In this document: positions 3,235 to 3,265 of the stretch, in pieces
Layout: each line of letters opens with the position of its first letter
Position numbering within the stretch: the first letter of the stretch is position 1
Assembly (NCBI RefSeq): GCF_003334765.1
Contig: NZ_QOWT01000069.1
Reading direction: 5' to 3' (one strand)
Origin: Escherichia coli
GTDB taxonomy: Bacteria; Pseudomonadota; Gammaproteobacteria; Enterobacterales; Enterobacteriaceae
Length of the DNA: 3,673 nt
The notes under the pieces: model-generated
What the model saw: the letters and a program-made list of their open reading frames with translations, nothing else
The model's database searches: none
What the model was told of the DNA's origin: nothing
Made by a program: the position numbers and the translations under genes

Positions 3235-3265
3235 TAGAACTCCGTCTAGATTAGACGGAGTTCTA
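3235..3265 (-). terminator. Perfect palindromic hairpin about 70 nt downstream of the acnB stop (candidate acnB terminator or protein-binding palindrome)
   Basis: TAGAACTCCGTCTA GAT TAGACGGAGTTCTA: a 14-bp perfect stem with a 3-nt loop. On the acnB (minus) strand it is followed by UUGUAUUGAUGG, only moderately U-rich, so the terminator call is tentative. Confidence 0.4.

Follow-up and report, generated by a model that had tools for sequence, protein, structure and literature searches.

Close to the 3' end of an acnB gene of Escherichia coli lies an inverted repeat of perfect symmetry, and the question that it raises is where such a structure came from and whether it has a function where it now stands. 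The window, i.e., the whole stretch of DNA analysed, is 3,673 nt long. A preliminary description of it had placed the repeat next to IS-derived sequences and had left three options for it: the acnB terminator, an operator for a dimeric protein, or part of an IS-associated structure. The feature itself is the following, with the assignment that is argued for below:

3235-3265, minus strand: perfect palindrome (14 + 3 + 14 nt), the tnpA-leader stem-loop of an IS66-family relic, here called Y; the tnpA sense is that of the minus strand.

The geometry agrees with what had been claimed, a 14-bp perfect inverted repeat with a 3-nt loop: the arms, TAGAACTCCGTCTA at 3235-3248 and TAGACGGAGTTCTA at 3252-3265, are both 14 nt long and 100% complementary, and the loop reads GAT on the plus strand. 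The spacing reported from the third of the nearby TCAATAC repeats is also correct, since that repeat occupies 3226-3232 and is followed by AA and then by the palindrome, and a strong U-tract is indeed absent, as a terminator scan of positions 3050-3450 was negative on either strand; past the stem, the tails read UUGUAUUGAUGG in the acnB sense and CUUAUCCUGCAU in the plus sense. The palindrome is far beyond chance. As RNA, the 31-mer has a folding energy of -20.7 kcal/mol (z = -6.7), and none of 200 shuffles was equally stable; by simple arithmetic, a perfect 14-nt arm with a loop of 3-10 nt is expected about 1e-4 times in 3.7 kb. Over 300 first-order shuffles, the longest perfect arm typically measured 7 nt, with 14 nt reached once, a 1-in-300 figure that is indicative only, given the crude first-order shuffling.

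The origin of the palindrome is indicated by its relatives. With a 45-nt query, 635 of the 5426 E. coli genomes gave matches of 86-92%; these lie on plasmids as well as on chromosomes, and a single genome has up to 42 strand-places (about 21 loci). Each relative that was inspected lies directly 5' of an IS66 tnpA start, e.g., in ISEc23 and ISEc43, and a profile search identified the protein encoded downstream of the homologous hairpins as the IS66 accessory TnpA. In ISEc23, the order is GTAAGCGTAAAGCCAATGCCGTCTGTAACACCTGCTCCTTGCAGACTAAAT-TAGAGCTCCTTCTA-AAT-TAGACGGAGTTCTA-TTG-ATG; 51 nt separate the tip of the left terminal repeat from the beginning of the hairpin, whose 3' arm holds GGAG at 8 nt upstream of the tnpA ATG. 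The minus strand of the window, which is the acnB sense, reads TAGACGGAGTTCTATTG-TATTG-ATGG. Judging from these alignments, the palindrome is the tnpA-leader stem-loop of a dead left end of an ISEc23-type, IS66-family element; the option of an IS-associated structure was correct, in a more literal way than had been suggested, as the palindrome itself is IS sequence from an IS66 left end. About 88 nt of relic Y are left, at 3224-3312 on the minus strand, and comprise the ATG, the Shine-Dalgarno sequence, the hairpin and the leader:

3224-3226, minus strand: start codon of the former tnpA, placed by the alignments; the IS66 left-end homology ends at ATGG.
3227-3236, minus strand: TATTG-TATTG tandem duplication, between the Shine-Dalgarno sequence and the ATG; the minus strand of the window has GGAGTTCTATTGTATTGATGG, versus GGAGTTCTATTGATGG in ISEc23, L005 and L006.
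3240-3243, minus strand: GGAG, the Shine-Dalgarno sequence of the former tnpA as read from the sequence (CTCC on the plus strand), within the 3' arm of the hairpin in the tnpA sense.
3266-3312, minus strand: rest of the left-end leader of relic Y, approximately IS positions 9-51; the canonical GTAAGCGT tip is absent.

In BLAST, an IS66 left end of plasmid pWS3294A_133 has 82.5% identity to positions 3232-3293 (62 nt), and a second match of the leader and hairpin to IS66 left ends had 91.9% identity over 37 nt; local alignment to ISEc23 and L006 extends to window position 3312, the ISEc23 side beginning at IS position 9. Relic Y thus shares with left ends of the ISEc23/ISEc43 type 82-92% of the positions over hairpin and leader, with the right arm, the Shine-Dalgarno sequence and ATGG identical, as well as the order of leader, hairpin and start codon; it differs from them in that the GTAAGCGT tip and all that follows ATGG are missing, and in the 5-nt TATTG duplication, because of which GGAG is 13 nt from the ATG in the window versus 8 nt in ISEc23. 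Two observations count against the IS66 identity: the terminal inverted repeat GTAAGCG is absent from the outer end of relic Y, and the bases beyond it align with the acnB 3' flank instead of an IS tip. The codons after the relic ATG (GCT CTG GTA GAA GC) matched no relative in the alignments. The tnpA-tnpB-tnpC operon is absent after relic Y, where ATGG is followed by only 13 further nt and then by the right end of another IS66 element; therefore, Y is a relic and not an element. The right end of Y is gone as well, and with it any 8-bp target-site duplication.

A variant left tip was noticed on pWS3294A_133 (L005 3468-3492), where GTCAGTGT takes the place of GTAAGCGT at the start of the IS66 left end and part of a second repeat tip lies ahead of it. 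The octamer GTCAGTGT also occurs in the window, 3 nt after the acnB stop, where it aligns with the flank of the housekeeping acnB; GTCAGTGT is a possible alternative tip of relic Y, but an ambiguous one, as it may be a coincidence or the true tip.

Multiple genomic copies had been considered beforehand as the mark of a generic palindrome, of the REP/BIME-like extragenic type, and the number of places reached by the short query in some genomes speaks for this reading. The multiplicity is real for the imperfect relatives, but these occur only within IS66 elements, all inspected copies being at one fixed position inside IS66-family left ends. The exact palindrome, instead, is single-copy in strain 746, where its two places are both strands of one site, and among 241 million metagenome records it was found at the acnB locus only; moreover, an Rfam search of the whole window in evalue mode returned no family at the palindrome, only a chance miRNA match elsewhere. 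The REP-like reading, which deserves practically no credence, is already refuted by this distribution.

Relic Y borders on the remains of two other elements of the same family, which occupy the lower coordinates of this region:

2550-3086, plus strand: C-terminal fragment of TnpC, the IS66-family transposase, of element 1 (NF033517 transpos_IS66, E = 1e-50, profile positions 227-377 of 387; RefSeq annotation).
3087-3127, plus strand: right terminal repeat of IS66-family element 1, with the tip ...CCGCTTAC at 3127; TCAATAC #1 is at 3101-3107.
3128-3209, plus strand: last 82 nt of IS66-family element X (ISKpn24/ISEc8-like), consisting of the tnpC end and the right repeat ...CACTTAC; TCAATAC #2 is at 3183-3189.
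3210-3223, no strand assigned: short stretch between relic Y and X, with no match by BLAST or local alignment.

The element X segment has 78-84% identity to IS66 right ends (ISKpn24, ISEc8, ISEc22) and includes the last 44 nt of tnpC. Strain 02B21CPO003B (L050) departs from the window sequence leftwards of approximately position 3214. At 3127/3128, the right tip of element 1 abuts inside the tnpC of X, 44 nt before its stop and in the same orientation; in all, three IS66-family fragments are nested within 800 bp of the window. Adjacent IS66 copies were also seen elsewhere: L004 holds two ISEc23 copies side by side, one of them truncated, and in Citrobacter braakii (L012 326-395) a second IS66 left end, located 176 nt upstream of a complete one, ends inside the hairpin loop, at a breakpoint that may be hairpin-associated.

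The TCAATAC heptamers had been regarded as IS-derived repeats, and this view stands for two of the three. For both #1 and #2, the distance from the end of the repeat to a right-repeat tip is exactly 20 nt, as is found also in L007 and in the right end of ISEc23 (L004), and they are a conserved sub-terminal motif of IS66 right ends; the left repeat has a counterpart, GTCTGTA or GTATGTA, at the same distance. Repeat #3 (3226-3232, plus strand) is instead a by-product of the TATTG duplication. A right-repeat fragment was considered for it and rejected, given that no repeat tip lies at 20 nt on either strand and that the duplication explains the heptamer. Also rejected was a MITE, i.e., a miniature IS66 derivative with GTCAG... 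ends, at 3128-3331: the portion 3128-3209 is the tnpC end and right repeat of a separate plus-strand element, and 3311-3334 aligns with the acnB flank.

Two further features were noticed at lower coordinates of the window. At 197-227, between the convergent stops of an agaR-like regulator (191) and a UxaA-family pseudogene (254), there is another perfect inverted repeat, with 12-bp arms (TATGCCCGATAA / TTATCGGGCATA), a 7-nt loop and no T-run. The UxaA-family hydrolase gene (254-1408 on the minus strand and 1571-2083 on the plus strand) is broken up into two ORFs, and in RefSeq it is labelled as frameshifted, with an internal stop; the ORF of 170 aa at 1571-2083 matched nothing in NCBIfam and is annotated as hypothetical only.

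On the other side of relic Y, the window contains the end of the gene that had drawn attention to the palindrome:

3311-3334, minus strand: 3' flank of the island acnB, alignable with the housekeeping flank (TAAGAAGTCAG----TGTGCTGCGTATAAA versus TAAAAAGTCAGCGCACGCGCTGCGCATAAA).
3335-3673, minus strand: 3' end of an island-borne acnB paralogue, from the ORF, the RefSeq annotation (strain 746) and TIGR00117 acnB (E = 1e-53); it is the last gene of citCDEFXG-acnB.

The gene had been named acnB, and the family is correct; however, it is a second, island-borne copy and not the housekeeping gene. The window, which is 100% identical to strain 746, is within an E. coli genomic island, where a cluster comprising a divergent GntR regulator and amidohydrolase-MFS-citCDEFXG-acnB (L001 20236-30274) lies among IS fragments, toxin-antitoxin genes and an integrase. 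Of 5426 complete E. coli genomes, just 38 have the island acnB locus; in the others the match is to the coding part alone, at about 90%. An integration of the island into the 3' end of the housekeeping acnB was considered and discarded, as the whole gene is a paralogue inside the cit-lyase cluster, within the island. The first 26 nt or so past the island acnB stop are homologous to the flank of the housekeeping gene, and the housekeeping terminator (GGGAATGAGATTCCCGGGCATTTTTTATTT, a hairpin with a T6 run) is missing at the island copy. The most likely history of the locus is that Y was formerly present in the orientation of the island acnB, its left end some 25 nt past that gene, and that all of Y beyond the tnpA ATG was then lost. 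The break lies next to the right end of X, and X itself adjoins the right end of element 1.

This position makes it necessary to consider whether the hairpin was co-opted as the Rho-independent terminator, or as a 3'-end-stabilising hairpin, of the island citCDEFXG-acnB operon. In the transcript sense, it follows the acnB stop at a distance of 70 nt, at a copy of the gene from which GGGAATGAGATTCCCGGGCATTTTTTATTT is missing, and no other terminator-like site is present in 3050-3450. The structure resembles a Rho-independent terminator in its 14-bp stem with 6 G-C pairs, its 3-nt loop and its placement downstream of a gene in the sense of that gene, with a dG of -20.7 kcal/mol; with a stem of 14 bp, U makes up 5 of 8 positions in the tail UUGUAUUG, and the TATTG duplication, which is not in the IS copies, adds U's to it. 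Conservation downstream of acnB, which the preliminary description had seen as informative, was indeed found, the hairpin being kept, where a terminator would be, in 38 of 38 genomes with the island acnB; however, these genomes diverge by about 1% only, so their retention of the hairpin is uninformative on selection. Unlike the housekeeping acnB terminator with its T6, the palindrome has no U-run longer than 2 and fails the criteria of the terminator scan on both strands; the sole reason for this miss is that additional A-U and G.U pairs can lengthen the stem. Furthermore, the hairpin was inherited from the IS, where the homologous structure is followed by UUGAUGGAUAAA, ahead of a start codon. 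As an origin of the palindrome, the acnB terminator is not supported, given that hundreds of IS copies with no relation to acnB have the same hairpin and that the scan was negative; as a later co-option, or as a partial and accidental terminating or 3'-stabilising effect on the island acnB transcript, it is unlikely, though worth keeping in mind. The palindrome is an ordinary relic and not a purpose-built acnB terminator or operator. It is probably inert in the window, an inert relic being the simplest reading because no tnpA is left to regulate, and we regard as likely the reading as a whole, i.e., the relic of an IS66 leader hairpin that would sequester the Shine-Dalgarno sequence in intact elements and would have no role here. 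For the window, its main value is one of annotation: a striking palindrome beside a metabolic gene is transposon debris, and "acnB" is the second copy, carried by an island.

The hairpin is not a peculiarity of the E. coli elements. One genome per species was scanned with the TnpA of ISEc23, which gave 35 loci in other genera, at 50-70% protein identity, including Pectobacterium, Trabulsiella, Buttiauxella, Citrobacter, Klebsiella, Serratia, Rahnella and others; in nearly all of them the layout is GTAAGCGTAAA, about 51 nt, the hairpin and the ATG. In an alignment of 27 distinct leaders, with a helix of 16 pairs, 81% of the cells are paired, compared to 26-38% after a shift of the 3' partner by 1-3 columns. 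Nine of the 16 pairs change on both sides (e.g., from C-G to G-C in 9 sequences at columns 17/42), and the covariation score was reached by none of 500 shuffles. The helix is thus kept by compensatory change among the leaders, with the covariation coming from only two to three clades and being of a kind that a symmetric protein-binding DNA site would give as well. The Shine-Dalgarno sequence is found in the arm as GGAG in ISEc23, L005 and L006, as AAGGAG in Pectobacterium, and as GGA in group B, which includes Citrobacter, Serratia, Klebsiella, Buttiauxella and other leaders (L012-L041). Hairpins are also found at this place in the more distant leaders of ISEc8 and ISEc22 (z = -3.6 and -4.7), where they are unrelated in sequence and end 3-14 nt before the tnpA ATG; what is conserved is therefore the location over the translation start region, more than the sequence, and this favours a role at the RNA level over a sequence-specific operator. 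A conserved leader hairpin of IS66 elements appears not to have been described before.

The same comparison bears on the operator proposal, according to which the palindrome would be a DNA site for a dimeric IS66 protein, TnpA or TnpC, that serves in autoregulation of the tnpA operon or in assembly at the left end. The symmetry that had suggested it is perfect in the relic, with dyad arms around a 3-bp centre; residues 18-60 of TnpA resemble an IS3-type helix-turn-helix region (weak match to NF033516), the compensatory changes also fit a symmetric site, and CCGTCT / CCGT(A/C)TGTA is common to the arms and the inner left terminal repeat in group A, to which ISEc23 belongs, and in group B, a resemblance read by eye, with a rough chance estimate of about 0.04 in group B. 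The intact elements, on the other hand, are asymmetric, with 1-4 mismatches, and 23 of 27 sequences lack pairing at columns 21/38. The mismatches are of the transition type and are wobble pairs on one strand, a property of RNA and not of half-site recognition. Also, the hairpins of ISEc8 and ISEc22 occupy the equivalent position but are unrelated in sequence, and their arms lack CCGTCT, and in the window no IS66 tnpA stands beside the palindrome. A dimeric operator is accordingly the less likely option, and we consider it quite improbable.

The perfection of the stem is peculiar to the relic at acnB. Among 28 leaders, it alone has Watson-Crick pairs at 14 of 14 positions, and its relatives deviate precisely where a change disrupts a pair. 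In ISEc23, columns 16/43 form a G.U and columns 21/38 a U.C; L005 and L006 have each repaired one of the two, and the relic has both repaired. Intact elements thus seem to maintain an imperfect stem. In the 241 million metagenome records, a perfect stem with any 3-nt loop was encountered five times, always at the acnB locus, and neither that scan nor the genome scan with TnpA revealed an intact IS with a perfect stem. The loop (3249-3251) varies as well: it is GAT in the window, in L045 and in four metagenome contigs, and the reverse complement ATC in L044, L046-L050 and L057, between flanks that are almost identical. A single inversion of the loop would account for the three apparent substitutions and suffices for the haplotypes observed. 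Both features are best explained by template switching within the palindrome, i.e., quasipalindrome correction, and not by selection for a new function; in E. coli, quasipalindromes are known to be made perfect in this way (PMC7202029), and such sites are mutation hotspots (Ripley 1982; Dutra and Lovett 2006). For the relic, the process is deduced from natural variants, and the change would have run from the imperfect to the perfect stem. The perfected stem and the inverted loop would make a clean natural example of such mutation.

The most likely function of the hairpin in intact elements, by inference from its position and from better studied insertion sequences, is sequestration of the Shine-Dalgarno sequence. 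The stem in the tnpA mRNA would hide this sequence and keep translation of TnpA low, especially on transcripts reading in from outside, and overlapping reading frames would probably extend the repression to the whole tnpA-tnpB-tnpC operon. A precedent is IS200, where a stem-loop in the tnpA 5'UTR was shown experimentally to hide the Shine-Dalgarno sequence, to block 30S binding and to repress translation (Ellis et al. 2015, PMC4513863). As in the IS66 leader, the IS200 stem-loop is at the left end and carries the Shine-Dalgarno sequence of the first gene; IS200 differs in belonging to another IS family, with unrelated sequence, and in having a left-end terminator apart from the stem-loop, as well as art200, an antisense RNA that has been mapped. 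Protection against read-through transcripts by fold-back structures has reportedly been described for IS10 and IS50 (Davis, Simons and Kleckner 1985; Krebs and Reznikoff 1986), and is said to be covered in a review of insertion sequences (Mahillon and Chandler 1998). In these elements, the inverted repeats of the left end include the ribosome-binding site, and only transcripts from outside form the occluding hairpin. The IS66 leader is similar in that inverted repeats near the left end span the ribosome-binding site; IS10 and IS50 have their native promoter between the two repeat units, whereas the IS66 scans located no promoter. A consensus scan for sigma-70-like promoters, on both strands of the window, of ISEc23 and of one group B element, gave none; IS promoters are often weak, and their absence from a consensus scan decides nothing. 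In the literature searched, no experiments or transcript maps on the structure or regulation of the IS66 leader were found. By analogy, the IS66 leader hairpin would be a new example of a known regulatory principle. IS66 elements are common in the pathogenicity islands and virulence plasmids of E. coli, and a conserved stem-loop over the tnpA ribosome-binding site offers a handle on self-limited expression in a poorly understood family of three-gene insertion sequences.

One observation does not fit simple sequestration on the sense strand. In group B, every mismatch of the stem is A.C in the tnpA sense and G.U in the antisense, so that the hairpin has -9 to -15 kcal/mol in the sense orientation and -19 to -25 kcal/mol in the antisense one; group A (ISEc23) has the opposite bias, -15.7 in the sense versus -11.4 in the antisense. 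As the group B sequences are related, this asymmetry may reflect few evolutionary events. By analogy with RNA-OUT and art200, the antisense stem-loop of group B could be the body of an undescribed antisense RNA against tnpA; alternatively, the asymmetry could be a tuning of the occlusion of the Shine-Dalgarno sequence. That the IS66 leader palindrome is a two-strand regulatory device is a doubtful proposition overall, as is, separately, the co-option of the window relic as a terminator or 3' stabiliser of cit-acnB.
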